DNA of 64,000 nt from an uncultured Muribaculaceae bacterium (GTDB lineage: Bacteria > Cyanobacteriota > Vampirovibrionia > Gastranaerophilales > Gastranaerophilaceae). The position numbers and the translations under genes are program-made. Below, piece by piece: positions 37,176 through 63,369 of this stretch. Below the pieces are notes generated by a model. It was not told where the DNA came from. It searched no databases and saw nothing but the letters and a program-made list of their open reading frames with translations. The stretch's first letter is position 1. Every line of letters starts with the position of its first letter. The DNA lies in the NCBI GenBank assembly GCA_964446855.1, contig CAYUQM010000001.1:8507-72506 (forward strand). The letters are read 5' to 3'.

Positions 37176-38471
37176 TTACATTTCAAATTCTTCTTTAGAC
37201 ATTTTTGTATATTCTTCTACGGTAACCGTATTTGGCGCTTGAGCCTTTTTCTCTAACCCTTTTTCAAGAAGTTTCGGAGCATCTTTTTTAAGCTTTTCAT
37301 CTGCAAGAATAAGGTCACGTTTTTTTGCAACTTTGATAAGGCTTATGACTGTTTCTGTCGGAGAACCGTCAGCCCCGACAGCTTCCTGAACATCGTAACT
37401 TGCCCAATCATCAGGAAGCTTATCTAATTTTGCGTAATCTTTATCAGTGCCGATACGTTTGTCGATTTCATTGAGTAGAATATTTTTAACATATTCCTTT
37501 TGAGATTCAAAATGACAAGGTATAACGATATCTTTGCCGATAATTTCTTCGGCATCACGGTTTTCGCGTTTTTCGAACAAATCTGCAGCAACTTTCAAGT
37601 GACCGATTTCAAAAGCTAAAAACTCTTCCCAAATTAGTTTTAATTTTTCGTCTTTTTCGTCTTGCATGCAAGTGTAGTAATTGCAGACTTCTGTAAACTC
37701 GTGGAGAAGAAGTTTTTCGTAAATGGTTTCAGTCGGGTCGATAAGAGATTCGTACATAGTAACGTGTTCTTCTTCAACGTCTTTAATTTCCGCGTAAGTT
37801 TCGCGTAAGCATTCATTACCGTAACAAAGTCCGTGCTCTGCGTAGTAGTTATGAGTTTGCTGCTCGCCTGAGACGAGGGTCAGGATATTAACTTTTGTCT
37901 GAATTGATGTTTTATTTTTGTCGTAAGGTTTGCGAAGTCTTAAAACATTGCAGTTATGGTGGTTCTGGGTGGGACGAGAAAGCATAATGTCAGTCTGCCC
38001 CTGAACGATTTCGTTAGGGTTAATGCCGTGCATCATATAAGCCCATTGGCTGTATCTGTATAAATGGTCAAAATCTTCCAATAAGCCGAAGTTAAATGTT
38101 TCGCGAACATAATCATCAGGTTCGTTTTGAGCAAGCCAAGCCGTCAGGTCGACTGCAACTTGTTCATATCCGAGAGTTGTTTCTAATACGGATTGGTCGG
38201 CAGGTGCAAGCCAGTTAACTGTAGTCTGTTGAGCATCTTCAAGCCGTCTTGTTTGAGCAAGAAATGCCAATAACTCTTCATCATCAGTCATTCGAGCCGC
38301 GTTGTGTTTAAAATTCCATCCTTCAATTTCAATCCCGTTCATAAGAATTTGACGGGTTCTGGAATAGCAATCCACTTCGTTTTTATTAAAATGTCTGTGT
38401 GCAATATCGTGCCAAGTGCGAAGCTGGTCATCAATGGCAATACCTTTTTCTTTTAACGCGTTAAAACTCAT
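37176..38471 (-). CDS. Hypothetical protein, possibly ferritin-like/di-iron helical fold
   Basis: ATG at 38471 has an AAAGGAG SD; the ORF opens at 38531. ExxH-type motifs present (VEEEHVTMYE, FEIGHLKV) with helical character. Family not recognised. Confidence 0.4.
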   Translation of the reverse strand: MSFNALKEKGIAIDDQLRTWHDIAHRHFNKNEVDCYSRTRQILMNGIEIEGWNFKHNAARMTDDEELLAFLAQTRRLEDAQQTTVNWLAPADQSVLETTLGYEQVAVDLTAWLAQNEPDDYVRETFNFGLLEDFDHLYRYSQWAYMMHGINPNEIVQGQTDIMLSRPTQNHHNCNVLRLRKPYDKNKTSIQTKVNILTLVSGEQQTHNYYAEHGLCYGNECLRETYAEIKDVEEEHVTMYESLIDPTETIYEKLLLHEFTEVCNYYTCMQDEKDEKLKLIWEEFLAFEIGHLKVAADLFEKRENRDAEEIIGKDIVIPCHFESQKEYVKNILLNEIDKRIGTDKDYAKLDKLPDDWASYDVQEAVGADGSPTETVISLIKVAKKRDLILADEKLKKDAPKLLEKGLEKKAQAPNTVTVEEYTKMSKEEFEM

Positions 38472-38568
38472 AAAATTAAACTCCTTTCGTTCTAAAATAT
38501 CCGATATTGGATAACGAAAAGAGTTTAACATTGAATATAATAAAATTTATCCGACTGGTGTACAGAAA

Positions 38569-39198
38569 TTATCTTTGGTTTTCAATCATATTTGTAGTAC
38601 CAATGTAATCTCTGGCAATAGTACCATTAACTCTCATTTTCCCATCAGCTCTTACTCCGAGAGGGAATCTATCAGGTTGTATACATCCTTCCTCGTTTTC
38701 CGTACAATTTGGGTCATTGTCTCCGTTTACGTCAAGCAATATATTATGATACGTAGCCTGATCCGCAAAATCAGTATATGGAATAATCCATTTTACACCA
38801 TCAGTTGTCGTAAAGCTCGGGTTATCATAATTTGCACCATCTACGCAATTTGGTTCTTCTGACAAGGTGTTCATTTTGAGGGCGAAGAGGCGGCATAACT
38901 TTGCTTTCTTCTCTTCATCGCCGGCACCACCATATACTGTCCCGTTAATAGTGACTGCACTAGTATTATCAAATCCAACTCTGGAATCAACGAACGGATA
39001 AGCTTCTTCATCATTTACAAGTTCTGAAATAATACGTTCAGCCAAATAATATGCCTTTTTAAACATAACTTTGTTCTTGTTAGGACGCAGTCTGTTAATC
39101 GCAGGCATAAGCAATGTTGCAATAATTGAAATTATTGCCAAGCAGACCATTAATTCTGCCAAAGTAAAAGCTTTATGATTTTTGCAAATATTTTTCAT
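38569..39198 (-). CDS. Prepilin-type N-terminal cleavage/methylation-domain protein (minor pilin/pseudopilin-like, 209 aa)
   Basis: KAFTLAELMVCLAIISIIATLL has Glu at +5 after the putative cleavage site, then the hydrophobic helix. LLDVNGDNDPN is a pseudopilin-like motif. Confidence 0.75.
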   Translation of the reverse strand: MKNICKNHKAFTLAELMVCLAIISIIATLLMPAINRLRPNKNKVMFKKAYYLAERIISELVNDEEAYPFVDSRVGFDNTSAVTINGTVYGGAGDEEKKAKLCRLFALKMNTLSEEPNCVDGANYDNPSFTTTDGVKWIIPYTDFADQATYHNILLDVNGDNDPNCTENEEGCIQPDRFPLGVRADGKMRVNGTIARDYIGTTNMIENQR

Positions 39199-39220
39199 TA
39201 TTAATCCTTTCAGTTACATT

Positions 39221-41866
39221 TTACCACATGATAACAATTGCGCCCGGATAACCGTTCTGTCCTTGAATTTCATCAAACTGTTGCAGGTAATTTGAGCCAC
39301 AGTGTGGTATATTCGCAATATCAGTATCTCTGAAATTCGTATAGCCTTCCCACTCATCAAATTCATCACCATCAGTGTTGTCAAAGTTTGCAACATCTTT
39401 ATAATAATAGTCGTATGTAGATGTACTCCCATATTCGGAATATCGAAAATATTGAGGTCTCAGCCAACAGTTATGTTTTACATATCCTGCATCCCCACCG
39501 CGACCTAACAGAGCTACAACATCGCCATCTTCAATCATAGACAAATCTGATAAGAAGGAAACAGATTGGAACTGAGAATCTTCTCCCAAATAGGTTCCGT
39601 CTTCATAGGCATCAGAATTTTTTACGATGTCTTCTGCACTGACTCCTGCCGAATTTTGAATATAATTATAAACTTGTTCGTTGGTTAAGTTAGGAGAGTG
39701 GTATGATTCAAGGAAGTGACTGCGACCACCGAGTCCACCGGCAACCTGAACTGTAGTGCCACAGTTTTCCTGATTTGCATCACAGCCGGTTCTTATTTGA
39801 GTTACCTCCCCATTGGCAGCAGTGCCTGCAGATCCCGGAGTTATATCCAGATTAGCTCCACCGCGTCCGGGCAGCAATACTAAATCTGAATTTCCGAATG
39901 AACGGGCAAACAGTGCTTTGTATCCGCCAGCTTTACCTCGTTCTCCGTGGCTGAGCCTGATGGTTCCTGTATAATGGCTCACCCTTAACCCAATTGTATT
40001 GTTCGTACTGCTAGTAGGGCATGTGTAGGCATTATACAGTCTGAACATAGACGCATAACCACCGGTATGAACAAATCCGACATTTTGGGTACAAGCATAG
40101 CCGTTTGAGTTCAAATTAGTAACCCAGTTACTTACAAAACTTTGAGAACCGCTTTCGCCGACAAGTCCACCGTTTGATTGTGCAGCATAAGGGCTCTTGC
40201 ATTGACTTGATAATGAACCTGTAAATGCCCTTGTTAAATGCTCGTCTAACATAGATGCAGTCATTGTAGCACCCAGTCCACCCTTACCAACAGCATAGGT
40301 TTCAGCTCCGGTAATCTTAGAATTAGAGGTTGTTTTAGTTTGACAAACATCAGGAGCTGTGCATATTCTGACACCATACTTATCCACATTTCCTGAATTA
40401 TCTAGAAAATATTGGTACGTACCATCCTGACCTGTTTTCGCTCGAAAAATACCAGGACTGACTTCTTCACAACCCGGAGTTAGCGGTTCTAACTCAACTT
40501 TTAAAGAGAGTGTAGGATATTGCTTGAAGAACAAAGCATCTGTATCTGTATAATTTAAAGAACTGCTAGCAGGGTAGTAGCTATAAAAATAATATTGTAT
40601 ATTGGAATAATTTGTCCCATTAAAATATTTACCTGAGCTAACAAATCCGTTGGCATCTTCAACAGGATCTTCAATGTCTATTCCTTCAATGTCTTTGCAA
40701 GCTCCTGATGCACACGCCTCTGCATAAGGATATAGTACCCCCGGTGCAGCTGTGGTTGCTACGACTTCTACTTTAGGTTTGACTATACATTCTGCCCCCT
40801 TACCGTTTTGACGGCTATTCCCATCAACAATCCAATTATCAAGTGGATTACCATCATCGTCATTCTTTGAACGTTCTGCGGTTTGATAATATACTCCATA
40901 GCCAAAATCAACAGCATCAGATGCAATATAGCCGCCGCTTCCGCCATTACCTCCAGAGCATTGGATAAGTTCACTTGTATTAGAAAGAACAGGCTGGTAG
41001 GTTCCAACAACATTACCGCTTGCATCAGTAAATGAACTCTTTATCCAAGGGCAATTTTTGTAAATAGGAGAACGTAACTGACAATATGGAGCAGCTGCTT
41101 CTGAGCCAAACACAAGCTGTTGCCCTGCTAAATTATTAAATTGTACAATATCACCATTATTCCTGTTATATCCTATAATTCTCTGGAGACAATCCATAGG
41201 GTCTTTTGAGTTTTTATCACTTGTATTCCCGTAAAAACACAAAGATTTGTACCAATGGAATGGTTCTGATGAGTTCGCTTTTTCGTAATCTGATTTGAAT
41301 AAATAATACAGTGTAAGGTTTCCGCCATTAGCCCCACTTCCAGCGGTATCGTAGGAAAACATTTTTACCTTATATGTATCCATAATCCACTTAAATGCTC
41401 TGGATGAAAATGTAGCATTATTTACTTGAATTTGGACATCAGCAGGTGTTAACCCCTTTTTGGGATTATCTTTCGTGTATTTAACTTTATCGCCAAATGG
41501 TATGGTCGCAGATGCAGTACTGCTGGAGTAGCTTTCGTTATAATCAAAATTAGCATTACCGCCGGCACCGCCACCGCCTATAAGCTGTACATACAGATAA
41601 GAGGCGGTCTTTGGAGCATTGAATGTACAGCGTTCAATATCGTTGTTATTTAATAGCAAGCTTTTGCCTGAATACATAATTTCATGCAACGCGCCGTCCT
41701 CCCAGTTACGGTAGCAAATGTATGTACCGTGCACGCTACGTCTAGGTTTTAATTTATGCTTTCTGGTAATAACAGAAGTCGAACTTGCAAAAATAAGTGA
41801 CAATACAACCAGCAATAACATTACTTCTATAAGCGTAAACGCTTTTTTTAATTTTATATTTTTCAT
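39221..41866 (-). CDS. Giant prepilin-signal protein with glycine-rich modules, C-terminus GYPGAIVIMW (881 aa)
   Basis: KAFTLIEVMLLLVVLSLIF, HGTYICY, CTFNAPKTASYLYVQLIGGGGAGGN. Multiple GG-x-GG motifs. AAGGAG SD present. Paralog of the two upstream genes. Confidence 0.7.
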   Translation of the reverse strand: MKNIKLKKAFTLIEVMLLLVVLSLIFASSTSVITRKHKLKPRRSVHGTYICYRNWEDGALHEIMYSGKSLLLNNNDIERCTFNAPKTASYLYVQLIGGGGAGGNANFDYNESYSSSTASATIPFGDKVKYTKDNPKKGLTPADVQIQVNNATFSSRAFKWIMDTYKVKMFSYDTAGSGANGGNLTLYYLFKSDYEKANSSEPFHWYKSLCFYGNTSDKNSKDPMDCLQRIIGYNRNNGDIVQFNNLAGQQLVFGSEAAAPYCQLRSPIYKNCPWIKSSFTDASGNVVGTYQPVLSNTSELIQCSGGNGGSGGYIASDAVDFGYGVYYQTAERSKNDDDGNPLDNWIVDGNSRQNGKGAECIVKPKVEVVATTAAPGVLYPYAEACASGACKDIEGIDIEDPVEDANGFVSSGKYFNGTNYSNIQYYFYSYYPASSSLNYTDTDALFFKQYPTLSLKVELEPLTPGCEEVSPGIFRAKTGQDGTYQYFLDNSGNVDKYGVRICTAPDVCQTKTTSNSKITGAETYAVGKGGLGATMTASMLDEHLTRAFTGSLSSQCKSPYAAQSNGGLVGESGSQSFVSNWVTNLNSNGYACTQNVGFVHTGGYASMFRLYNAYTCPTSSTNNTIGLRVSHYTGTIRLSHGERGKAGGYKALFARSFGNSDLVLLPGRGGANLDITPGSAGTAANGEVTQIRTGCDANQENCGTTVQVAGGLGGRSHFLESYHSPNLTNEQVYNYIQNSAGVSAEDIVKNSDAYEDGTYLGEDSQFQSVSFLSDLSMIEDGDVVALLGRGGDAGYVKHNCWLRPQYFRYSEYGSTSTYDYYYKDVANFDNTDGDEFDEWEGYTNFRDTDIANIPHCGSNYLQQFDEIQGQNGYPGAIVIMW

Positions 41867-41885
41867 TTATATCCGTACTCCTTAA

Positions 41886-42896
41886 TTACCAAGCAATAAC
41901 AACAGCTCCCGGTCCACCGCTTTGCCCTCGGGCACCACCTTCACCCGGTTTAGGGTTTGTTACTGTAGCAACCCCATCAGTTAAATCCAATGCATTTAAA
42001 TAAACCTCAAAGTCAGAAGGTTGGGTTCCAGTCGTAAAATTACCATCTTTCCTTAAAAATAAGTTGTAAAGAACTGTCTTTCCGCCAAGATATGCTACAG
42101 TTTTACTTGTATCAATCTGTGTGCAAAACTTTATCGGACTAGCGTTTTCATTACCTGTACAATAGAAATTCGAAGAAGAACTTGATGTTGTCAAGTTACT
42201 GTAAGTGTATTCCTTAATAGCTTCACAACTTGCATCTTCATTGTCACAACTGCAATATCCGACCCTTATTTTATTTTCAGATTCCAATATGTTGCAAAAG
42301 GCTTCTCTACGACAATTATATTCCTTGTAGCTAACCTCGCAAGAACTATATGATAATGAACTGCCTGAGTTAGATCTGCCTCCTTTTAGTCTCATTACCT
42401 CTCTGTTGTTGGAATCATCGTCAGTTATGTAGGTATCATCTCCTCTGGGTCTTATGTTGGAATAATTGTAAGTGGTCTTTTTCCCCGGATATATGCTAAG
42501 TTTGTGGGTTGTGGTTGTCAAAAAGATACTGGTATATGCTCCGGCAGAACCGCCATAACTGGACGAATAACCTGATCGTCCTCCGGAACCGCCTGCAGCT
42601 ACAGCATTTATTGCAAGATATGCTGCGGCTTTAACCGGTTCGAATGTACAATGACCTGTAGAAACATTAGTATCTTGAACAACAACGTTTTCAGAGATTA
42701 ATCGTTGGTGAAGAACGTCGTTATTATCATAATAACATTCAAATCTGCCGTGTGCAGGGATCGCAATTTTTTTCTTGAATTTCTGAGTGAAAACATTGGA
42801 AGCTGCGGCTATGAATATTGAAATAATAGCCATAGTAACAACAACTTCGAACATTGAAAATCCGTACTTATTTTTTGTTTTCCAATCAAATAACAT
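41886..42896 (-). CDS. Prepilin-signal glycine-rich protein, minimal paralog, C-terminus GGPGAVVIAW (336 aa)
   Basis: YGFSMFEVVVTMAIISIFIAAA, HGRFECY, CTFEPVKAAAYLAINAVAAGGSGG. The ATG at 42896 has an AAGGA SD; the ORF-track start at 42914 would overlap the upstream stop. Confidence 0.7.
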   Translation of the reverse strand: MLFDWKTKNKYGFSMFEVVVTMAIISIFIAAASNVFTQKFKKKIAIPAHGRFECYYDNNDVLHQRLISENVVVQDTNVSTGHCTFEPVKAAAYLAINAVAAGGSGGRSGYSSSYGGSAGAYTSIFLTTTTHKLSIYPGKKTTYNYSNIRPRGDDTYITDDDSNNREVMRLKGGRSNSGSSLSYSSCEVSYKEYNCRREAFCNILESENKIRVGYCSCDNEDASCEAIKEYTYSNLTTSSSSSNFYCTGNENASPIKFCTQIDTSKTVAYLGGKTVLYNLFLRKDGNFTTGTQPSDFEVYLNALDLTDGVATVTNPKPGEGGARGQSGGPGAVVIAW

Positions 42897-42907
42897 ATTC
42901 AATTCCT

Positions 42908-45325
42908 TTACCATACAATTACAACAGCACCCGGATAGCCTTTGGTAGGCTTACATATATTATTAGGAGAGTCAGAGTAATGGACAACGGCACCCGTCGG
43001 GTTGTCAAAGGCATCACCCTTTTTGTAACAAGTATAATCACTCATTACCGTATTAGTAGCATCCGCAGGATATTCCCGCTCCCAGCCGTTATCGTATCCT
43101 GTCGTAATAACGGCGTAATTGTCGTCATAATATATAGCTTCTAATTTCTCAATACCGGCTGTACTTCGTATAAACGAGTAACCGCCATCTCCTGCTGTTC
43201 CCGGCATAACCGTTCCCAGTTCACCCTCAGCACCATAAAGATAATTAATAGCTGATGGTGTTCTTGTGTTAGGGTCCAACTCAAGAATAGTATAGAATTG
43301 TGAATCATCAGCAAAGCGTCTAGGGTCATCTGTCGATACGTCCTTATCTAAACAGCCGTGAATTCTAAGTGCCTCTCCGGTTGTCAGTTGAGGGGTGCAC
43401 ACACCTGTTATTGCTACTGCAGGATGACCATCCGGAGATGTAGTTGCATCCATTGCAGCTTGACCTTTGAATGTACCCTCACCAAACATTACTATTTTTA
43501 TTCCTGTAGCACCGTCTGCTGATCCTACCCCCCCAGGAGCTTGTAGAATTACAGTTCCTGCAGACGATACCGTTGTCGTACCACCCGAACTGCCGGCTCT
43601 GTCGATACGACTTTGCCCAGGATTTCCGCCTAAACCTATATCAAAAGTCAAATCATCCTTAAGTTTTGGTAAAAACATTGAAACACTTGTACCCGGAGTT
43701 CCGGCAAAGCCGACAGTAGGAGTATCATAACCGTAAGTTCTCTTATATTCAATCTTGCGAGGGAATGTCGGATATTGTATCTGTGCTTCAATCTCATCGT
43801 TCCATCCATCAGCAGTCCAAGAGCCGGTTGTTCCACCGTTGCAATCTATATAACCTTTATCACCTTTATAAGCATCTTCATTTTGTATAACCACATTTTC
43901 AAGCTCTGTAGTGCCTTCATGTCCGTTATATCCAGGGTTTATACGACAGTTTGCGGTAGAATCTTGAATTTTTACATAGTTACTTGCAAACCACTGACCG
44001 CATCTTGCAGTATTCCCACCAACGGTGTAAAGCGTTCGTAGAATAGGATTCCCACTGGCATCAGTTAAATGCCCTTCGTATGTTCGTGGATTTTGCCAGC
44101 TTTCAAATTCTGCGTTCTCGGGAGAGGCAAATTCCCATGATAATTTGATAACATTACACCCGCTATTAATTCCAGCTATAGTTTTATAAGTAGGGTAGAC
44201 ATTTGTTTTTGCCTTGTACATACTACAATTAGTAATGCTGGATCTATAGTCATACTTATAATTTGCGTCATTAACAAAAAAGAACCCTTTTCCCATTGTG
44301 GAGCCGTTATTGTCTGTATAGGACGGATATGCATAGGTCACGGAGCTACTATAGGTTTTTTCCCCAGATTCTCTATCTGAGTATTCAACCCTATAGTTGT
44401 TTGAGGCAGTCAACGTTACATCACTTCCCGGACGTTTGTAGCAGGCGCCCTCTCCGCCTTTCCCTCCGTAGAAAAAGTCATACGATTCCTCTCCGCCTTC
44501 GGCAGCTACTAAGTTGTTTGCCAAGGGTGCACCTGTATATCCTTTGCCGGAGCAAAATCTCATTGTATCTCTACCTTGAACCGGTATAAAATAGCTGCTT
44601 ATCCAATTGGTTTCAGGTTTACTTGCCCAGTAATTAATTGAATTTTTATAATTTATACATTTTTCGTATAGTCTATCAGTAGTTTTATAACCACCTGTTG
44701 TATATGATGCACAAGGACGTGTGCCTCCTGCTATGGTATAATCCGCACCGCTGCCATCACGCATTTCTCCATTAGCCATGTAATGGTAGTCATAGTAGTT
44801 GTTCGTTATTGTTGGGGCATCTGTCTGTTGATAACCCAATTTGCAAGAACCCCATTGATCCGGACTAGAACAGTTGCATTCTGCATTTCGATAAATAGTA
44901 GCAGTTTCAGTATAACTGTCGTTTTTGTAATTGGTGCTTGTCGGATCGTATGGCGGATACGCACCGCCGGCACCGCCGCCTATAGCTTGGAATGAGAAAT
45001 ATGCCGCATTAGGCGCCTGATCATGCGGGCTGAATCTACACTGAGCAACCTCTTCTCCTACCGGATTGCCGGCGGCATCCAAATATCTGGGGTCGGCACC
45101 GTTTCTTTCTGTTGCGTAAAACTCTTTCAACGCACCGGTATCAGGATCTCTCCAGCATTCATAACGACCATGCTCACCGCGAGTGATACGTTTTTCAACT
45201 TTCTTATGTACGATTGGAGGTAGTGCTAAAACTAAAAAAGAAAGAATTAATAATACCAGAAGCATTTCTGCAACTGAAAAACCATCCTTTATATCCTTAA
45301 ATTTGTCTTTTATCCTCTTTTGCAT
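42908..45325 (-). CDS. Giant prepilin-signal protein with glycine-rich modules, C-terminus GYPGAVVIVW (805 aa)
   Basis: DGFSVAEMLLVLLILSFLVLAL, HGRYECW, CRFSPHDQAPNAAYFSFQAIGGGAGGA. First gene of the minus-strand operon. Confidence 0.7.
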   Translation of the reverse strand: MQKRIKDKFKDIKDGFSVAEMLLVLLILSFLVLALPPIVHKKVEKRITRGEHGRYECWRDPDTGALKEFYATERNGADPRYLDAAGNPVGEEVAQCRFSPHDQAPNAAYFSFQAIGGGAGGAYPPYDPTSTNYKNDSYTETATIYRNAECNCSSPDQWGSCKLGYQQTDAPTITNNYYDYHYMANGEMRDGSGADYTIAGGTRPCASYTTGGYKTTDRLYEKCINYKNSINYWASKPETNWISSYFIPVQGRDTMRFCSGKGYTGAPLANNLVAAEGGEESYDFFYGGKGGEGACYKRPGSDVTLTASNNYRVEYSDRESGEKTYSSSVTYAYPSYTDNNGSTMGKGFFFVNDANYKYDYRSSITNCSMYKAKTNVYPTYKTIAGINSGCNVIKLSWEFASPENAEFESWQNPRTYEGHLTDASGNPILRTLYTVGGNTARCGQWFASNYVKIQDSTANCRINPGYNGHEGTTELENVVIQNEDAYKGDKGYIDCNGGTTGSWTADGWNDEIEAQIQYPTFPRKIEYKRTYGYDTPTVGFAGTPGTSVSMFLPKLKDDLTFDIGLGGNPGQSRIDRAGSSGGTTTVSSAGTVILQAPGGVGSADGATGIKIVMFGEGTFKGQAAMDATTSPDGHPAVAITGVCTPQLTTGEALRIHGCLDKDVSTDDPRRFADDSQFYTILELDPNTRTPSAINYLYGAEGELGTVMPGTAGDGGYSFIRSTAGIEKLEAIYYDDNYAVITTGYDNGWEREYPADATNTVMSDYTCYKKGDAFDNPTGAVVHYSDSPNNICKPTKGYPGAVVIVW

Positions 45326-45374
45326 AACTATAAATCTCCAACTCGTGTCAAAATAACAACAATTACATAAGTAT

Positions 45375-45409
45375 ATTATACCATGTTTCCTTGTATATGT
45401 AACAACTTT
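45375..45409 (-). promoter_or_regulatory. Candidate extended -10 promoter for the minus-strand pilin-like operon
   Basis: On the minus strand: TTGTTA(CA)...TGgTATAAT. The TATAAT is the reverse complement of 45375-45380. Confidence 0.35.
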
Positions 45410-45460
45410 GTTACAAAAAGTTATAAAAAATAAATTCTCTTAATCTTCCAGATGTCAAAC

Positions 45461-45489
45461 TTGACCCCTATTGACTGATATGTTATAAT
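45461..45489 (+). promoter_or_regulatory. Sigma-70 promoter with extended -10 for the plus-strand pilin-like gene
   Basis: TTGACC (45461-66), 17-nt spacer ending in TGt, TATAAT (45484-89). Confidence 0.55.
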
Positions 45490-45530
45490 TATATACATAA
45501 TCTATTTTGATATGAGAGGTGGGGTTCAGG

Positions 45531-46523
45531 ATGTTTAATTTTTTTGAAAAGATAAAAAGAAAATCTGCTATCACTTTGGGTGAGTTGTTGGTTGTTTTCG
45601 TTATTATGGGCGTAATTGCCGGTATGACAATGGTTACGGTTAAACCTAACGAAAAATCTTTGAAGTATATGTATTATAGAATTTATAATACCCTTGGTAC
45701 TGCTTTCTACAACTCGTCTATAAACATTGATCCTGCGTTAAGAAATCACCCTGCTATGGATAGGCAATTCCCTAGAACAGCAGAATTGTTCTGCAAGCTT
45801 TTGCTTGAATACATGAACTCTAAAGAACCTAATACTACTTGTAGCAATGACAAGACTATTGATATTGATAATCCTGAATTTACCAATGAAAATGTTCAAT
45901 TTATTACAAGTAATGGTACGAAAATCTGGATTGGACATAGTGCAGGAGCAGCAAAAGGTGGTTTTTCAACTCTGACAGCAACAGATAATACCAATTCTGA
46001 GTTTACACTAAGGTATTATTTCGTTTTCGCTGATCTTAATGGTGAAATGGGGCCAAACTCACATCTTTCAAACGGAAGAGGAATGGCAGACATTGTTGCT
46101 TTTGTCGTAACAGAGGATTATGATGTTGTGCCGTTGGGTATTCCGGAAGTCGATACCAGATACTTTACAGCCAGAGTTGCATACTCTGTTGTAGCAGGGC
46201 TTGATGCAGAAGATGTTACAACTTCTATGCCAATGCCTTATTTGGCAGCAAAAAGACATGCTTGGGGAATGCCTAATAAAGGGTTTTATGTTTCTGCGAA
46301 CGAACCTATGTCTATGAATTTTTACGACGGGGTGAATATTACCCAAGCCAGTCCGTTTTGGCTTGATTATAATGATGCCCAGTATGACAGTATAATGTCT
46401 GCAACCGTAAACCAAAATTGCGGATTTAATGAACATCCGATTGACCCTAGCGTGGAAGATTCCCCTACCGTATATGATGTTGAACCGGATGCTTGTTATA
46501 TAACTGTTAAAGATTATTACTAA
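45531..46523 (+). CDS. Prepilin-type N-terminal domain protein (pilin/pseudopilin-like, 330 aa)
   Basis: KSAITLGELLVVFVIMGVIAGMTMV (Glu at +5) and FADLNGEMGPN. The ATG at 45531 has a GAGGTG SD; the ORF track starts at a GTG at 45519. Confidence 0.7.
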   Translation: MFNFFEKIKRKSAITLGELLVVFVIMGVIAGMTMVTVKPNEKSLKYMYYRIYNTLGTAFYNSSINIDPALRNHPAMDRQFPRTAELFCKLLLEYMNSKEPNTTCSNDKTIDIDNPEFTNENVQFITSNGTKIWIGHSAGAAKGGFSTLTATDNTNSEFTLRYYFVFADLNGEMGPNSHLSNGRGMADIVAFVVTEDYDVVPLGIPEVDTRYFTARVAYSVVAGLDAEDVTTSMPMPYLAAKRHAWGMPNKGFYVSANEPMSMNFYDGVNITQASPFWLDYNDAQYDSIMSATVNQNCGFNEHPIDPSVEDSPTVYDVEPDACYITVKDYY

Positions 46524-46594
46524 GAAAATGTATTTGCGGTATAAGTATGTTTATGCTAACCTGTCTGTAACGTAGAATCTGATAGGTGTATTTT

Positions 46595-47326
46595 ATGTCA
46601 ATGAAAAAATATCTCATTGTTTTGCTCTTGTTTGTTACTGCAATTGTTACTGTATATATATTGTGTTTAACAAGACATGCTGATATTGAAATATTTAACG
46701 CAACTGTTAATGTTGAATCTGTTGAAGTTAAATCAAGTGTTGGTGGCAAAATTAAGAGTATAAATGTTTCAGACAACAACGAAGTGAAAAAAGGACAGCT
46801 CATCGCTGAAATTGAAACAGTTTTGCAACCTCAGAGGAAAATTATCTCTCAGGATGAGTCTGAAGCAGATTACGAAAATATAGCTATTATGTATAAAGAT
46901 GGCGTTATCTCAAAAGAAGAATATGATGCTCAAGTGAAAAATATGATGGAAAAATCTTCCGTCTCAGAGCAAAAAAACGAAAATATTAAAACTACCAAAA
47001 TTTATTCACCAATAGATGGTTTTGCTAAAATCGCTGATGTAAAAATAGGTGATTATGTTAAAAAAGAAGCTCTTATTGCTAATGTCTATTCTCTGGATAG
47101 AAGTGTTAGGGCATATTTTCCGGTTACATACAAGAATGCCGTTAAAGTTGATAAGAATGTCGAAATTTCTATAATAAAATATCCGGAAAAGGAATTCACT
47201 GGCAAGATTTCAGCATTAGAAAAACCTGAGCCGCAAGGACTTCCGGTTACTATATTGTTCAATGATGATACTTCTAACTTAGATATCCAAAATGGTGATT
47301 CGGTTATTGTAAAACTAAAAAACTAA
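46595..47326 (+). CDS. Membrane-fusion (HlyD/RND adaptor)-like protein, short form, N-terminal TM anchor
   Basis: Two barrel-sandwich half motifs: [30 protein letters not shown] and [22 protein letters not shown]. Start is ambiguous (46586, 46595 or 46601). Confidence 0.55.
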
Positions 47327-50459: not shown

Positions 50460-51431
50460 ATGGATATTTTATTTATTATTGATAGAGTTGAGTTGAAGTA
50501 TTTTGAGTTTAATAATCTTGTTACCAATTTTTGGCTGATTAAAGAACTCATAAGTAACAATAATAATGTTTATATTACGACTATTGACGGTTTGCTTTTA
50601 AAATCAGGAAAGGCATGGACTCACTGTTTTAAGGCTTATGAACAAGACGAGAATATTTTCTATGATAAATCAGATATCCTTAAAGAAATCGAAAGCTTTA
50701 AGCTTGTTATGTTCAGACAAGATCCGCCTTTTGATTTGGATTACTTAAATTCAACTTATATTTTTGATTTTGTTGATAGTGAAAAAACTCTTGTTTTGAA
50801 CAATCCTGCAGCGATTAGAGATTTTAACGAAAAACTCCATGCGGTGAGATTTTTGGACTTGATGCCTGAAAATATAGTTACATCTTCAAAGTCAGATATC
50901 ATATCTTTCTTAAACGAACATGAAGAAATTGTCCTGAAACCTTTGAACAGATGCTTTGGGGCAGGAGTAATGACCCTGAAGAGAGGGGATAAAAACACAG
51001 CCGTTATTATAAATTCTATGACAAATAACGGTTCTACTCTTTGCATGGTTCAAAAATATATCCCTAAGGCTGTTTGTGGCGATAAACGGGTGTTATTCTT
51101 AGGCGGAAAGGTTCTTCCATACTGTGTGCAAAAATTGCCGAGCAATGATGATTTTAAATTTAATGAGCATTGTGATGAAAATATTATTAAGGCGGAGCTT
51201 ACAGCAGATGAGCTTGAAAAATTTACTCCTGTTGCTGAAGAAATGTATAAAATGGGGCTTTCAATGGTTGGATTGGATGTTATCGACGGCAAAATTATTG
51301 AAATTAACGTAACAAGTCCTTGTTATTTTATTAAAGAAACTAACAATCACTTTGGCTGCCATCTTGAAAAAGAAATCACGCAATTTATTTTGGGCGAAGT
51401 TCGGAATAAATTTATGGCGGGTGTTATTTAA
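50460..51431 (+). CDS. gshB: ATP-grasp enzyme, prokaryotic glutathione synthetase (GshB)-like
   Basis: FRQDPPFDLDYLNSTYIFD, NNPAAIRDFNEKL, LKPLNRCFGAGV, GDKRVLFLGGKVLPYCVQKLPSNDDFKFN and EINVTSP. The ATG at 50460 has an AAGGGG SD. Confidence 0.75.
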   Translation: MDILFIIDRVELKYFEFNNLVTNFWLIKELISNNNNVYITTIDGLLLKSGKAWTHCFKAYEQDENIFYDKSDILKEIESFKLVMFRQDPPFDLDYLNSTYIFDFVDSEKTLVLNNPAAIRDFNEKLHAVRFLDLMPENIVTSSKSDIISFLNEHEEIVLKPLNRCFGAGVMTLKRGDKNTAVIINSMTNNGSTLCMVQKYIPKAVCGDKRVLFLGGKVLPYCVQKLPSNDDFKFNEHCDENIIKAELTADELEKFTPVAEEMYKMGLSMVGLDVIDGKIIEINVTSPCYFIKETNNHFGCHLEKEITQFILGEVRNKFMAGVI

Positions 51432-54267
51432 GATTTAATCTGAAACGTTTAATTCTTTCTTTGACCAATTCGTCTTTTTCCGGCATATTTTCATCAGGGT
51501 TTAATATAAACACTAAATCCTGAAGTGTTGCATTGCCGTTTTTGACATCGGAATTAACCCAATCTGATATTTCGTTACGATAGTCAAGGTATTTGTGTTG
51601 CAGTCCTGCTAAATTCAGACGTTTTGTTGCTTTTAATTCCATATGTGTACCATTTTGGGATGTGTAGCATCTTTTTTCAGACGGGAATTTCTTTACCATC
51701 CCAAATAGCTCGATTTTGTCACAGAGTTCTTCAAATTGTAGTCCGTAAACGACAGTGTTTCCGGTTATATCAAATAATACGTCTGCAAGTACCTCTTCCA
51801 TTGCAAGTGTGCTGAGTGCATTTTCTGTAGAAAAATCTTCTTTAGGTATAATAAATAATTTTTGTATTGATTTAATGTTGGGACGTTTTTGACAAGCTAG
51901 TTTTATTGTATCAAAAGAGTTTGTTATTGTTTGAGATTGCCTAAAGTTGAGTCCAAGTTCTGATGTGTATTTGTCCATAAAAATGCTTGGTATAAAGTTA
52001 AAACGCTTGCTTATAAGAAATTTTATTTGTTTTATTTGTTCTTCTTTTTTTAATTCGTTTACTCCGGATATCAGGCATTTAGTGTTTTTAATAACAGCAG
52101 CAGGTGCATTGTTTTTGAATTTTTCTAACATATTAGCTTTTACCTGTAGAGGGTATCCGCTTTTGTCAGAAAATATTATGTTAAGTGTTTTTCCGTATGT
52201 TTTCAGGTATTTTATTAAATTCTCATTATCTTGCGATATAAAATATTCATGGGCAATTTTGTTGAGGTTATATTCTGACAGCGGTTCTACGAAACCGTTA
52301 TATAGCGTGTTTATTCTTGCTTTGTCGATTTTTCTTTTTAGTATAGGAAACTCAAATTGTTTTTGTAATTTATGGGAGCCGATTATTATTTCTTTCTCTC
52401 CTCTGTCAATTTGATGAATGGCTACTTTCAAGTCAGAGAAAGAAAGTTTGTAAACTTCAGGGTTTCCTGTGCATTCATAAACTATTGCCGCAAGAGCGCC
52501 TTCGAGTGCTCTATTAATCCTTGCACCTTCTTCAGATTCGGTTTGGCTTATTTTTACCAACAGTTCTTTTTCGTAATCAGATATAGGCTGACCTTTAAGA
52601 TGTTTCGTCCAAGCTTCAACTTGCTCCTGAGTAAAATCATTTTCTACCACTTTAAAGTAATCATTAATGTAGCTCTGCGGTAAATTCTTTAAATGTCCGC
52701 CGAGAACCGAAAAATACGTATTTTTAAAGTCTTGCATATAACTGATTGCAGCTTTTTGCTCTTCAGTATTTTGTGCAAGTTCTTTTGTTTGATTTAATTT
52801 AAATTGTGCGAGTTCTTTTATTCGTTGTGTTTTGTTTCGTAAAATTTGGCGTTTTAATTCTTCAAACGTACCGCGCGCAATTGCAGTTTGGACTTTTATT
52901 TGAGATTGTCTGATATTGTAACCTAATTTATCTGCATGTTGCGGGTTGTTTTGCCAAAATTCGTTCATTACTCTTGACTGAAATTCACTGAATTCTTTGT
53001 CAGAATATAGTAAGTCAGCAGGTTTGTAAATTTGATTTTCTTTAAGATGTTGTGATAAATCTTTTATTATATCTGTGGAGTTATTCCATGCATCAATCAT
53101 TGTGAATTTCAGCGGTTCTGAACCGGCTTTCAATTTTGAAATATAGTCAGTTCTTTCTGCCGGTGTCATTTCTGCCCATCTTGAAACGAGATGCTGCATA
53201 CGACGGATATGAAGACTGTCTTTTTCAGCTTCTGTCATACGTTCTTGATATAGTTTCAGGTTGTTTGTTGCCCATTTTATAAAAAATTCGTCTTTTGCAA
53301 GCAGAGTCGAGCCGACTTTTACATGCTTTCTGGGAGAACGTTTAATCGCAGGTTCTTGTCCTTCTGATTTGGTCTGCTCTTTTTTTGCCTCATCCCGTTG
53401 AAACTTTTTGAATTGCTTGAGCATATCCAATTCTGAAGTTTGAGTTGCAATCATATCTAAAATCTCGTTTCTGGAAAGAGAAGCCCACCAACTTTCAAAC
53501 TCTTGAACAGATTTTTTATTTCTTGCAGTTCGTTCCTCCATTGGTAAGTTATTCCAAAATTCGGAAATTTTATTTCCTACATAATCAGAATATCCGTCAA
53601 CGGTATATCTTAGAGATTGTCTGTATTCAAATTCTGGAACCTTAATTCCCAGCGAAGTAAGTGTACTCGGATAAATATAGCGTGCGTCATTGTTTCCGGA
53701 TTTAAAATCGGTCTTAAAATCTTCGTTTAAGTCTTTGTCTAAATCTTTGTTAATTTCTGCAATGGTTTTATTTTCAAGGAATATTTTCTTTATGAGATAT
53801 ACAGTCAAATTACTTTTATCTTTTAATACACCTTGATTATAGAGTTCCAGCAATTCATTGTTTTCTCTTACTGAATTCAAAATTCCCCTGGTTGCTTTTG
53901 ACTCAGTCGGATTAATTAAGCTGTCAAACAAAGATTCGTCAGGGTATGCGGACTTGATATCTTCAATACTTTGAGAAATTTCCAATAATTCAAATGCATT
54001 TTTTTGAGCTTCCAGTGGTGTCTGCTTTGATTTATCATCAAGACTTTCTATATATGTTCTAACTGTTTCCGGCATTCTATCTTTGTTTACGTTATAAAAA
54101 CGTTCCAACCCTTTATCAACCCTCGCTTCAAAAGATAATAAATAATCGTTGTAGCCGAGAGGTAATGTATTAGTGTTATTTGGTTCTATTTTAGGATTCT
54201 TATTTTTTGATTCTGGTAAATTTTGAGCTTTGTAAAAATGGGTAATCGGGTAAATTTTCATGCACAC
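51424..54267 (-). CDS. Large hypothetical protein (about 945 aa), predicted all-helical, internally repetitive
   Basis: Uninterrupted 2.8-kb ORF. No family recognised. Repeated W-x2-[LM]-[PT]-x2-ER and L-x2-[VA]-[LV]-x-[DE]-x-TGN-x2-VY-x-L-x-F-x-[DE]L segments. Confidence 0.55.
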   Translation of the reverse strand: MCMKIYPITHFYKAQNLPESKNKNPKIEPNNTNTLPLGYNDYLLSFEARVDKGLERFYNVNKDRMPETVRTYIESLDDKSKQTPLEAQKNAFELLEISQSIEDIKSAYPDESLFDSLINPTESKATRGILNSVRENNELLELYNQGVLKDKSNLTVYLIKKIFLENKTIAEINKDLDKDLNEDFKTDFKSGNNDARYIYPSTLTSLGIKVPEFEYRQSLRYTVDGYSDYVGNKISEFWNNLPMEERTARNKKSVQEFESWWASLSRNEILDMIATQTSELDMLKQFKKFQRDEAKKEQTKSEGQEPAIKRSPRKHVKVGSTLLAKDEFFIKWATNNLKLYQERMTEAEKDSLHIRRMQHLVSRWAEMTPAERTDYISKLKAGSEPLKFTMIDAWNNSTDIIKDLSQHLKENQIYKPADLLYSDKEFSEFQSRVMNEFWQNNPQHADKLGYNIRQSQIKVQTAIARGTFEELKRQILRNKTQRIKELAQFKLNQTKELAQNTEEQKAAISYMQDFKNTYFSVLGGHLKNLPQSYINDYFKVVENDFTQEQVEAWTKHLKGQPISDYEKELLVKISQTESEEGARINRALEGALAAIVYECTGNPEVYKLSFSDLKVAIHQIDRGEKEIIIGSHKLQKQFEFPILKRKIDKARINTLYNGFVEPLSEYNLNKIAHEYFISQDNENLIKYLKTYGKTLNIIFSDKSGYPLQVKANMLEKFKNNAPAAVIKNTKCLISGVNELKKEEQIKQIKFLISKRFNFIPSIFMDKYTSELGLNFRQSQTITNSFDTIKLACQKRPNIKSIQKLFIIPKEDFSTENALSTLAMEEVLADVLFDITGNTVVYGLQFEELCDKIELFGMVKKFPSEKRCYTSQNGTHMELKATKRLNLAGLQHKYLDYRNEISDWVNSDVKNGNATLQDLVFILNPDENMPEKDELVKERIKRFRLNLK

Positions 54268-61126: not shown

Positions 61127-61338
61127 TAATCATCCCTCTCCTGTAATTAAAACATTAATCGAATTATACTATGAAGTTTATATTCAGTCAATTATTTTAA
61201 GGCGATATCCTCTTATTGACTTATTTTTAAGAATATATGTTTTGTAACGTTTTGTTAACAATTAGCTCTAAAATATTAAAGTATTCTACTGATTGTACCG
61301 ATAAAAGAAGTAAGGAAATTAACAAAAGGATAAAAATT

Positions 61339-63369
61339 ATGGGAATGTCAGCTTCACAAGCAAGGTTATTATACCTCACAGCACAACTTAATAATTTATC
61401 TTTGAAGGGTCAGGCAGTTTCTGACGCAAAAGTCAGACTTTCTATGGATACAGAAGCTATTCAAGAAAAATATATTAATGCTTTGAACTCAACTCATTTA
61501 TTTGTTAATAACAATATTTTTACTGCAGGTGGTGCTGTTGCTTCAAGCGAACGTATTACTCTTGAAAACTTGAAAGCTCAAGGGTTAATGGTTGCTGACG
61601 GAAGCAAAGTTCTTGGTTATTCATATCAGCAAGTTGCTACGGGTAAAAAAGATAAGCTTCTTGTTGGGTATGAAGATGACTTAGAAAATCCGATTTATCC
61701 TACAAAAACTGTTGAAGTGCCAGGTTTTGAAGAACCTTCAGCTTCTGCAATAGGTGATATTGAAAAAATGAATGCTATTGTTGATTCATTAGCTTTAACA
61801 GAAGATGATTTAGCTGTTCAATCATATACAACTTTTGTAGATGGTAAATCAACTCAACTTAATTCAATTGTTATTAAGTCTCAAGCAGGTTTTGAAGCAA
61901 TATATGAAATGTTGGCTACAGAAGGAACAAGCGGTGTGCTGAACAATTCTCTTCAGCAAAACTATGTATTAGATATGGATACTGTGGATATGTCAAAATA
62001 TATAAGCCACGGTGTTCCTTTCTTCCAAGGAGTTTTTGACGGTAATGGAGCTACTATTACCGGTTTGCACGGTGATCAAGGTCTATTTAGAGATGTTTAC
62101 GGTGTTGTTAAAAATGTAAATATTGATGGTGCAAATATTTCAGCAGAAACCGATTCTATTGGTGGAGTTGCAGGTTATCTTGGTGATGGCGGTATTATTG
62201 AAAATTGTAATGTAACTAATGCAGATATTACTTGTAACCTGAAAAATCAAGAGTACGATTACGGATATGATTCAGAAAGAGCCGGTGTTGGTGCAATTGT
62301 TGGTTTCAACCAAGGCTCAATTAAGAATACTTCTGCTACAGGTACAATTAGTGTACCTCATGCTGATGAAAGTTTTGGTTATATCGGCGGATTTGTTGGA
62401 GCAAATATTAATCCTGCTTATGGCGATGTTGATAACGTAATTGAAAATTGTTATTCAGATGTAAATATTAAACTTGGTACAGGTGCAGATTATTCAAATT
62501 CAATCAATGCATTTATAGGTGATGATACTTATGAATCAATAGTTAAAAATTGTATTTCACTGGGTGCAATTACAACAATGGGTGGTGAGCCTATTAATGG
62601 TAAAGATTTGGCTAACTGGGGTCCGGTTATTGAATCAAATGTTGAAAATATGATGGCACTTGATACTAGAAATAATCAAGATGTTTTATTCTGGGGAACT
62701 GAAGAAAACCCAAGTTATGTAAACGGTTCAAAATTTCAACCGGATGAATTGAGAAAGCAAACATATAAAACCGCTGAAGGAGCAGACATTCCGTTATGGT
62801 TAAATCAAGGTGCTGAAGGTTATGCTGATCAAGCTCAATTTTCAGCTTCAAATAATGGTTTACCTGTGTTGAACTTATCTGCTATTCAGGCTGAAGGTTT
62901 GGTTTCTGAAGGTGAAAAAGAAGTTCCTGATACAGATGCAGAACCTATCGGATATCAGCAAAAGCCTATTTATGAGGAAGTTGACGTTTTGGAAACTCAA
63001 TTAGTAGAAGACAAAAGTTTCTCAATTACACAACAGGCTTTAGAACAAGGGTTGAGAAGTGGCGCTTTACAACTAGTTAGAGAAGTTGGTGATGAAACAA
63101 CTCAAACAGTGTCACTTAACGGTTTGTTCTACGAGGTTGTAAGTTTAAGTACTTGCTCAGTAATTACCGATAAGGCAGAAGAAGATGCTGCGAATAGGGC
63201 TGAAGCTGAGTACAATAAAGCAATGCAAGAAATTCAATCAAAAGACAAACGTTATGAAATGGATCAAAAGAAAATAGATACAGAATATAATGCGTGTTTA
63301 CAAGAAGAAGAAAGTATAAAAACTGTACTTAACAAAAACGTAGAAAGATCATTTAAAACATTCGGGTAA
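61339..63369 (+). CDS. GLUG-motif protein with helical N- and C-terminal segments (676 aa)
   Basis: ATG 61339 has an AAAGGA SD. Central repeats GGVAGYLGDGGIIENC, GAIVGFNQGSIKN and IGGFVGAN are GLUG-like. N-terminal MGMSASQARLLYLTAQLNNL. C-terminal coiled coil ends ERSFKTFG. Confidence 0.65.
   Translation: MGMSASQARLLYLTAQLNNLSLKGQAVSDAKVRLSMDTEAIQEKYINALNSTHLFVNNNIFTAGGAVASSERITLENLKAQGLMVADGSKVLGYSYQQVATGKKDKLLVGYEDDLENPIYPTKTVEVPGFEEPSASAIGDIEKMNAIVDSLALTEDDLAVQSYTTFVDGKSTQLNSIVIKSQAGFEAIYEMLATEGTSGVLNNSLQQNYVLDMDTVDMSKYISHGVPFFQGVFDGNGATITGLHGDQGLFRDVYGVVKNVNIDGANISAETDSIGGVAGYLGDGGIIENCNVTNADITCNLKNQEYDYGYDSERAGVGAIVGFNQGSIKNTSATGTISVPHADESFGYIGGFVGANINPAYGDVDNVIENCYSDVNIKLGTGADYSNSINAFIGDDTYESIVKNCISLGAITTMGGEPINGKDLANWGPVIESNVENMMALDTRNNQDVLFWGTEENPSYVNGSKFQPDELRKQTYKTAEGADIPLWLNQGAEGYADQAQFSASNNGLPVLNLSAIQAEGLVSEGEKEVPDTDAEPIGYQQKPIYEEVDVLETQLVEDKSFSITQQALEQGLRSGALQLVREVGDETTQTVSLNGLFYEVVSLSTCSVITDKAEEDAANRAEAEYNKAMQEIQSKDKRYEMDQKKIDTEYNACLQEEESIKTVLNKNVERSFKTFG

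Follow-up and report, generated by a model that had tools for sequence, protein, structure and literature searches.

A Divergent Cluster of Five Prepilin-like Genes

The 64-kb stretch of DNA analyzed here, part of a Gastranaerophilaceae genome (contig CAYUQM010000001.1) and referred to below as the window, in whose numbering all coordinates are given, contains a compact, divergently transcribed cluster of five genes whose products begin like type IV prepilins. The Gastranaerophilales are common, non-photosynthetic gut relatives of the cyanobacteria and are, to our knowledge, uncultured. We named three consecutive genes of the minus strand D, C, and B, for positions 1, 2, and 3 of a triplet, and the two further pilin-like genes A and E (Table 1). 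All five open reading frames (ORFs) lie where an earlier description made from the DNA alone, hereafter the original prediction, had placed them. The genes are as tightly coupled as it had claimed, with gaps of 11, 19, and 22 nucleotides (nt) and an AGGA/GGAG-like ribosome-binding site at each. Its account of D, C, and B as three giant paralogs holds for D and B (805 and 881 amino acids [aa]), which owe their length to clade-specific insertions, but not for C, with its 336 aa. The ORF of C reaches 42914, and that of E could begin at a GTG at 45519. C probably begins at Met7 and E at the ATG at 45531, both in agreement with public gene calls; E is then a protein of 330 aa, the same length as the database product. 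The G+C content of the cluster (∼0.40) is slightly above that of its surroundings (∼0.37).

Table 1. Genes, Domains, and Regulatory Sites of the Cluster, in Window Coordinates (a Slash Marks the Prepilin Cleavage Site)
Feature	Position	Strand	Size or composition	Basis
Gene D, triplet position 1	42908..45325	-	805 aa; class III signal peptide, α1N, linker, and TNF-like/glycine-rich domain with large insertion	ORF
Gene C, triplet position 2, minimal triplet member	41886..42896	-	336 aa	ORF (reaches 42914)
Gene B, triplet position 3	39221..41866	-	881 aa; architecture like that of D and C, several insertions	ORF
Gene A, pilin-like	38569..39198	-	209 aa	ORF
Gene E, pilin-like, divergent	45531..46523	+	330 aa	ORF (could begin at GTG 45519)
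Prepilin cleavage motif and hydrophobic α1N of C	42780..42875	-	residues 8–39; G/FSMFE	N_methyl match, residues 8–32; AF2 helix, 15–39
Gly_rich_2 (PF21722) domain of C	41889..42659	-	residues 80–336; C-T-F-E-P...AAGGSGG to GGPGAVVIAW	Pfam, profile positions 3–225 of 226
Clade-specific insertion in D, after first GGGxGG	43748..44935	-	residues 131–526; no Pfam domain; found only in the window's clade	occupancy over 29 orthologs
Promoter-like site, D-C-B-A operon	45375..45403	-	GTTACA-17-TATAAT with TG extension	consensus scan
Promoter-like site, gene E	45461..45489	+	TTGACC-17-TATAAT with TG extension	consensus scan, 11/12 matches
Perfect palindrome overlapping operon -35	45398..45415	.	TGTAACAA-CT-TTGTTACA	inverted repeat, 8-nt arms, 100% complementary

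Each of the five proteins begins with a class III signal peptide, in keeping with what had been claimed. The leaders and mature N termini read KA/FTLAE, KA/FTLIE, YG/FSMFE, DG/FSVAE, and SA/ITLGE, all with a glutamate at position +5, and a regular-expression scan of all ORFs of ≥70 aa identified these five as the only prepilin-like ORFs in the window. The N_methyl family (PF07963, cut-off 21.2 bits) is matched above its cut-off by A (31.4 bits) and C (26.3 bits) and below it by B, D, and E (14.2, 12.9, and 13.6 bits, respectively); TIGR02532 likewise scores above cut-off in A and C and is sub-threshold in the other three. Among orthologs of the triplet proteins, N_methyl matches at E < 0.01 were obtained for D in 22/29, for C in 14/29, and for B in 7/29.

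The orthologs conform to the same signal. In a survey of 116 (29 each of the D, C, and B types, 16 of the A type, and 13 of the E type), the rules for a class III signal peptide hold in every one, with position −1 always glycine or alanine and glutamate at +5. Position +1 is phenylalanine or tyrosine, and varies among Ile, Met, Phe, Leu, and Val in the E type. Over the 12 residues that precede the cleavage site, the net charge of the leaders is +2.2 to +3.0, and the first charged residue after Glu5 comes after a median of 25–27 mature residues. In the cluster proteins, the hydrophobic helix is followed by a lysine/arginine-rich stretch. In type IV pilins, Glu5 is known to act in the packing of subunits against one another in the filament.

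D, C, and B Are Paralogs That Share a Glycine-Rich Domain

The modules that the original prediction had read in the three consecutive minus-strand genes are all present. The motif HG[RT][YF]xC[WY] occurs as HGRYECW, HGRFECY, and HGTYICY in D, C, and B, respectively, the motif C[RT]F...A[AS]Y...GGGxGG is found in all three, and the proteins end in GYPGAVVIVW, GGPGAVVIAW, and GYPGAIVIMW. By direct alignment, D, C, and B are 26%–29% identical in their N- and C-terminal modules, outside the glycine runs, and when the C and D families are compared profile to profile, the probability is 98.9% and the E value 1e-17 over the first 107 columns. The resemblance is therefore no by-product of low-complexity glycine runs, and the proposed paralogy stands. 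The profile-profile alignment is confined to these N-terminal columns, insertions disrupting the remainder, so that the evidence for a shared C terminus comes from the direct alignment and from regular-expression matches.

The minimal member, C, matches the Pfam family Gly_rich_2 (PF21722) at 26.4–26.5 bits, above the gathering cut-off of 24.3 bits. Since this match spans the profile nearly from end to end, the start and end motifs correspond to the two ends of that domain. The B and D proteins of the window have no Gly_rich_2 match of their own in Pfam scans because insertions split the domain. Matches are found among their orthologs (D, 9/29, best E value 4.6e-6; B, 18/29, best E value 1.7e-7) as well as those of C (6/29), and record P0060 carries a precomputed PF21722 match. 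No Pfam domain besides N_methyl and Gly_rich_2 was detected in 87 D, C, and B orthologs, insertions included. The proteins each contain 10–20 cysteines. Comparison of the sequence profile of the C family with the PDB was uninformative, yielding spurious matches to the glycine linkers of single-chain variable fragment (scFv) antibodies and a match to α1 of geopilin.

An AlphaFold2 (AF2) model of C, built from a 26-sequence alignment, has a mean predicted local distance difference test (pLDDT) score of 82.4 and comprises a helix (residues 15–39), a low-confidence linker (residues 40–45), and then a mostly β domain. The model of D (pLDDT 69) follows the same order, with a helix at residues 18–34, a low-confidence linker at residues 38–47, and β structure thereafter; much of its insertion has low pLDDT. 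The normal globular head of a pilin is absent from both models, in which the helix extends to about mature residue 27 and is followed by the linker and then by the Gly_rich_2 domain.

A Foldseek search of the PDB with the C model returned the tail fiber of cyanophage Pam3 as top match (7ypx_A, probability 0.97, E value 1e-2). A second Pam3 fiber entry (7yfw_a) was matched with a probability of 0.85, and the tail tip of mycobacteriophage Bxb1 was matched weakly at rank 9 (E value 0.14, probability 0.33). Among the predicted viral structures of BFVD, 59 match the C model at E < 1e-3, mostly with a probability of 1.00. These are for the most part phage and giant-virus “glycine-rich domain-containing proteins,” minor tail proteins of mycobacteriophages, and gp38-like proteins of cyanophages. 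Together with the Pfam match of C, they bear out the likeness to glycine-rich domains of phage and virus fibers that the original prediction had pointed to. D, C, and B belong to the Gly_rich_2 family by hidden Markov model (HMM) and by fold.

A and E Are More Conventional Pilin-like Proteins

A and E are pilin-like paralogs of more conventional appearance than D, C, and B. Their families align by hhalign with a probability of 98.7% (E value 1.7e-16, 164 columns) and have in common the pilin N terminus, an amphipathic helix, and the motifs FC..L..NT and VD(V/L)NG..PN. The mature A protein starts with Phe1, has Glu5 and Pro22, and continues into the amphipathic helix. The profiles of A and E match solved type IV pilins over α1 only; judged from the amphipathic helix after Pro22, both proteins may have a globular pilin head. 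Some sources label A homologs “type II secretion system protein,” which is a generic label for any protein with an N_methyl domain.

Downstream of gene A, after a gap of 37 nt, the same (minus) strand carries a 451-aa ORF (37176–38531). Pfam gives no match for this ORF and NCBIfam only a weak one, to a ferritin-like model (EncB family, E value 0.007); loci L002, L004, and L010 have it in the same syntenic place behind the A gene.

The Triplet Is Old, Fixed in Order, and Variable in Size

The order of the triplet genes is fixed in ∼44 Gastranaerophilales/Melainabacteria genomes; the comparison covered 45 related loci. In each of the 31 complete triplets, the best outside hit of every gene, over the first 135 mature residues, is the gene at the same position, and paralogs within one locus are only ∼31% identical. 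The three positions thus form ancient ortholog groups, which indicates an early triplication with retention of every copy. A- or E-type genes adjoin the triplet in most loci.

With insertions added to a conserved core of about 290 aa, protein size varies from 353 to 931 aa at position 1, 291 to 394 aa at position 2, and 538 to 1,406 aa at position 3. In D, the occupancy profile of the 29 orthologs defines a conserved core of ∼284 aa, made up of residues 4–130 and pieces of residues 527–805; the core of B is ∼458 aa and is interrupted by several insertions. Such variation in loop insertions, with the core unchanged, is what one would expect of a binding surface and suggests that this surface is variable.

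We found 30 homologs of D. In a full-library HMM search at the level of 50%-identity clusters, 812 representatives matched with E < 1e-3 and at least 375 with E < 1e-10; the 150 matches listed are all either family fragments or proteins that start with the pilin/HGRxEC module. Relatives of C, from a scan of one genome per species, belong almost entirely to metagenome-assembled genomes (MAGs) assigned to Gastranaerophilales, Melainabacteria, or “Cyanobacteria bacterium,” and were sampled from human, chicken, yak, and rumen guts. The cluster also occurs on contigs whose records bear the names Brachyspira sp. CAG:484, uncultured Brachyspira, Acutalibacteraceae, and Bacteroidaceae (L013, L020, L014, and L042); either these labels or the binning of the contigs is probably wrong.

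Some genomes encode more than the basic set. An extra A-related prepilin of 445–517 aa, making a set of six pilins, is present in loci L019, L021, L023, L024, L026, L029, L040, and L042; in most it lies upstream of gene 1 on the opposite strand, and in L040 it lies downstream of gene 3. Two MAGs have two triplet clusters each, on different contigs (L002 and L003 in CALUUU01; L004 and L008 in CALUWA01), the second CALUWA01 cluster being only ∼35% identical. These doubled clusters represent either alternative tip sets in one genome or mixed-strain bins. The arrangement recalls Myxococcus, which has three minor-pilin/PilY1 clusters (PMC7541494).

Comparison with Modular Pilins, Tip Complexes, and Phage Fibers

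Modular pilins are defined operationally by an N-terminal IPR012902 motif combined with a domain not specific to pilus biology, and an InterPro survey counts 264 architectures, examples being Streptococcus sanguinis PilB, with a vWA module, and PilC, with a lectin module (PMC8179133). D, C, and B fit this operational definition, with N_methyl and Gly_rich_2 in one polypeptide. Like PilB and PilC, which are proposed to sit at the pilus tip and mediate adhesion, they combine a class III signal peptide and α1N with a grafted binding domain and are encoded together with other pilins (PMC8179133). They do not fit the structural definition, as the models place only α1N and a linker before the functional domain, with no complete pilin module; in PilB and PilC, by contrast, the module is carried on a complete small pilin (PMC8179133). 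They differ further in that the main text of that survey does not discuss Gly_rich_2 among its architectures, and in that three paralogous members always occur together here.

Minor pilins act both as priming complex and as tip complex, and a genome can encode several clusters of them (PMC7541494); trimeric and heterotrimeric tip complexes are likewise known (PMC8179133). The present cluster resembles GspK-I-J of the type II secretion system (T2SS), FimU-PilVWX with PilY1 of the type IVa pili of Myxococcus and Pseudomonas, and CofB/TcpB of type IVb pili, in that four to five co-transcribed prepilins are encoded apart from the major pilin. In such systems, of which GspK-I-J is a heterotrimer and CofB and TcpB are homotrimers, the filament is capped by a trimeric arrangement, with a bulky adhesive part at the outermost end. 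Unlike these systems, the cluster proteins have no sequence homology to them past α1N, there is no PilY1 β-propeller, and the adhesive domain would reside within the pilins themselves. No canonical minor-pilin family is matched past the N terminus (NCBIfam hits are confined to the first 20–45 residues and score 11–36 bits against cut-offs of 44–400 bits), and no PilX_N, GspK, or PilY1 Pfam domain was found in the proteins.

The third comparison is with Pam3 gp24 (7YPX/7YFW), a receptor-binding fiber composed of an N-terminal α-helix, a tumor necrosis factor (TNF)-like sandwich, and a glycine-rich domain with GGGGxGG motifs, whose homotrimer is held together mainly by a helix bundle (PMC9608196). 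The triplet proteins have the same order of helix, TNF-like β sandwich, and glycine motifs, and likewise alternate conserved glycine motifs with variable segments. The N-terminal helix of gp24 docks onto the baseplate, whereas here it is a prepilin membrane anchor; gp24 forms a homotrimer and needs the chaperone gp25, whereas here there are three distinct paralogs and no recognizable chaperone; and gp24 has 12 glycine motifs, whereas C has far fewer. In sequence, the likeness to phage fibers is seen at profile level only, with no tblastn match in phage genomes. Related phage adhesins include gp38 of the S16/T4 type and the minor tail proteins of mycobacteriophages. The TNF-like plus glycine-rich ectodomain of the eukaryotic receptor tyrosine kinases ALK and LTK (e.g., 7LIR) belongs to the fold class of gp24 (PMC9608196); its link to the cluster is indirect, and it is not among the Foldseek PDB matches of the C model.

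We found no description of glycine-rich/TNF-like pilins or of Melainabacteria minor pilins in the literature. The five window proteins have no product names in databases, and in the few dozen word-indexed database matches seen with source names, the triplet proteins are unnamed and A-type proteins are at most called “type II secretion system protein.” The original prediction had taken the fusion of such a domain to a pilin anchor to be without precedent. This stands for the particular domain, the missing head, and the triplet, which are undescribed in the literature found; it does not stand for the modular-pilin principle, which was already known. None of the three outcomes that the original prediction had named as refuting it was encountered, the presence of pilus machinery being judged at the level of the lineage from a published Gastranaerophilus genome (PMC5877343). 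New here are the use of Gly_rich_2, the missing pilin head, and the constant triplet, and we expect that this combination would surprise a pilus specialist.

A Model for a Tip Complex with Fiber-like Adhesins

On balance, we lean toward a model in which D, C, and B, together with A and E, are minor pilins that form a pilus-tip and priming complex displaying phage-fiber-like adhesin domains. The five proteins would be cleaved by PilD, for which the evidence is at the level of the lineage: a published Gastranaerophilus genome has pilA, pilB, pilC, pilT, and pilD (PMC5877343). Packing of their α1N helices at the inner membrane would then create the complex that primes a type IV filament; as the filament grows, it would push this complex outward until it becomes the pilus tip. 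The tip would be its natural place because a headless subunit with a domain of 300–1,400 aa could not sit in the body of a filament. There, D, C, and B may be present in one copy each, as a pseudo-threefold 1:1:1 heterotrimer, a stoichiometry suggested by the parallel between three paralogs with helix, TNF-like, and glycine-rich parts and the trimers of the Pam3 fiber, GspK-I-J, and CofB. Conservation of the three genes likewise predicts a 1:1:1 complex. A and E would link D, C, and B to the major pilin, and the glycine-rich domains would serve as adhesins or receptor binders whose specificity is set by lineage-specific loop insertions.

A bolder version of this model is doubtful. In it, an obligate heterotrimer of three paralogous headless pilins would have replaced the canonical minor-pilin/PilY1 priming complex in Gastranaerophilales, with the α1N helices capping the filament and the TNF-like/polyglycine domains shaping a pseudo-threefold tip that resembles a phage tail fiber. 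This would amount to a phage receptor-binding module adopted by, or donated from, a bacterial pilus, whose hypervariable loop insertions would tune adhesion in the gut.

Several results weigh against the tip-complex model. No PilB, PilC, PilD, PilT, or PilQ domain was found by Pfam scans of the ∼55 ORFs of the window, as the original prediction had also stated, and a motif search for the Walker A motif of PilB/T and for PilD and secretin signatures in 621 ORFs within ±10 kb of the 45 loci was equally negative. In ∼8 loci there is no A/E-type gene within 10 kb, and locus L025 (8913–14089) has triplet genes 1 and 2 and the A/E-type genes but no third triplet gene within 10 kb, tblastn returning only the paralogs; these loci argue against a strictly obligate five-part complex. 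Glu5 is retained in all five proteins but is absent from GspK and PilX, the subunits that occupy the topmost position (PMC7541494). The structural match is of limited strength, since the C model and Pam3 gp24 give template modeling (TM) scores of only 0.28/0.35 and an E value of only 1e-2 in the PDB search, and the D model has no significant Foldseek match in the PDB, the best being the Bxb1 tail tip with a probability of 0.21. Finally, incorporation of proteins that the models predict to be headless into a filament is without direct structural precedent.

Some of these points would be accounted for if the class III signal peptide did no more than insert and anchor the proteins in the membrane, or let PilD release them, with no polymerization, leaving all five as inner-membrane-tethered proteins of the periplasm or envelope. 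We would liken such proteins to the large pilin-like families of Planctomycetes and Verrucomicrobia, and the weak N-terminal NCBIfam matches do include Verru_Chthon cassette proteins. The missing pilin head in the C and D models, the lysine/arginine-rich stretch after the hydrophobic helix, and the lack of linked assembly genes at any of the 45 loci all fit this explanation. Nevertheless, we consider it rather improbable. Five co-regulated prepilins per cluster are the typical layout of a minor-pilin set, the strict conservation of Glu5 points to filament packing, and the 10–20 cysteines per protein suggest an exposed, disulfide-stabilized protein. Moreover, the receptor-binding fold of a phage fiber tip makes little sense inside the periplasm.

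It is still less likely that the five proteins are pilins or pseudopilins of a short filament of the T2SS or competence type, with glycine-rich domains that bind secretion substrates or DNA. The number of pilin-like genes equals that of GspG-K or ComGC-GG, the cluster has no obvious major pilin of ∼150 aa, and the best N-terminal NCBIfam matches are to ComGC/D/E/F and GspG/H/I; these matches, however, are limited to the N-terminal helix and lie far under the family cut-offs. The T2SS names attached to A-type homologs in some sources are generic N_methyl labels, and a survey of neighbors at the 45 loci found no gspD/E/F or comGA/GB adjoining the cluster in any of them. In addition, domains of 300–1,400 aa with hypervariable insertions are less suited to a periplasmic piston than to an exposed surface for binding. 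The related proposal of the original prediction, that the proteins are cargo of a T2SS-like system, is improbable, since class III signal peptides are not a feature of cargo proteins.

That these are phage or prophage tail-fiber genes, or cargo of a mobile element, that merely look pilin-like at the N terminus is suggested by their nearest structural relatives, which are phage tail fibers and minor tail proteins, but we rejected a prophage origin as highly improbable, given the flanking housekeeping genes (CysS, MurJ, PheS, UvrB, TsaD, Obg, MetK, and others), the synteny of the locus across ∼44 genomes of one taxonomic order, a G+C content only slightly above that of the surroundings, and the absence of relatives in 2.9 million viral contigs and, by tblastn, in 50,697 phage genomes.

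If the tip-complex model is correct, a pilus tip made of phage-fiber-like domains would be a new way to functionalize type IV filaments, would extend modular pilins to headless subunits, and would link phage receptor-binding proteins with bacterial adhesins in evolution. It would also bear on how Gastranaerophilales attach to their host, to food particles, or to other microbes. For annotation, at least 375 protein clusters match the profile.

Putative Divergent Promoter Region

The region between genes D and E had been predicted to be a divergent promoter region with a near-consensus extended -10 element. Our consensus scan found two such elements, one facing each way and both conserved. At the site of the D-C-B-A operon, TGGTATAAT is invariant in eight orthologous intergenic regions. 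At the site of gene E, conservation in the closest loci extends to both the -35 and the -10 box. The palindrome that overlaps the operon -35 box is conserved in L004, L005, and L010 and partly conserved in L006 and L009, and may be the operator of a dedicated regulator.

Genomic Surroundings

The remainder of the window consists of housekeeping genes, with no gene for pilus or secretion machinery among them and no sign of a prophage. Their products include CysS, a SpoIID-like protein, MurJ, an aconitase-family (LeuC-type) large subunit, an extracytoplasmic function (ECF) sigma/anti-sigma pair, GlgC, LysS, MinCDE, QueC, GatB, PheS, a DAHP-synthase-family (KdsA-like) enzyme, EamA, UvrB, PanE, GshB, TsaD, Obg, MetK, and Lgt. 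Across the 45 loci, the conserved neighbors likewise have housekeeping or transport functions, for example, peptidase U32-like, HAD-like, SulP, ABC permease, EamA, and MFS/HlyD/TolC-like proteins. Beside E, the window has an HlyD-like gene (46586–47326, plus strand) of 246 aa, compared with 376–388 aa in loci that also have MFS and TolC-like genes; it probably represents what is left, in shortened form, of an efflux operon and lies outside the pilin system.

Two large ORFs (51424–54267, minus strand, 947 aa; 19059–21143, plus strand, 694 aa) have no Pfam or NCBIfam match. A 710-aa ORF (61237–63369, plus strand), whose sole recognizable feature is a GLUG motif, may encode a surface protein. The ORF at 770–1867 (plus strand) joins a DUF559 (endonuclease-like) domain to a partial zinc carboxypeptidase M14 domain, an unusual pairing.

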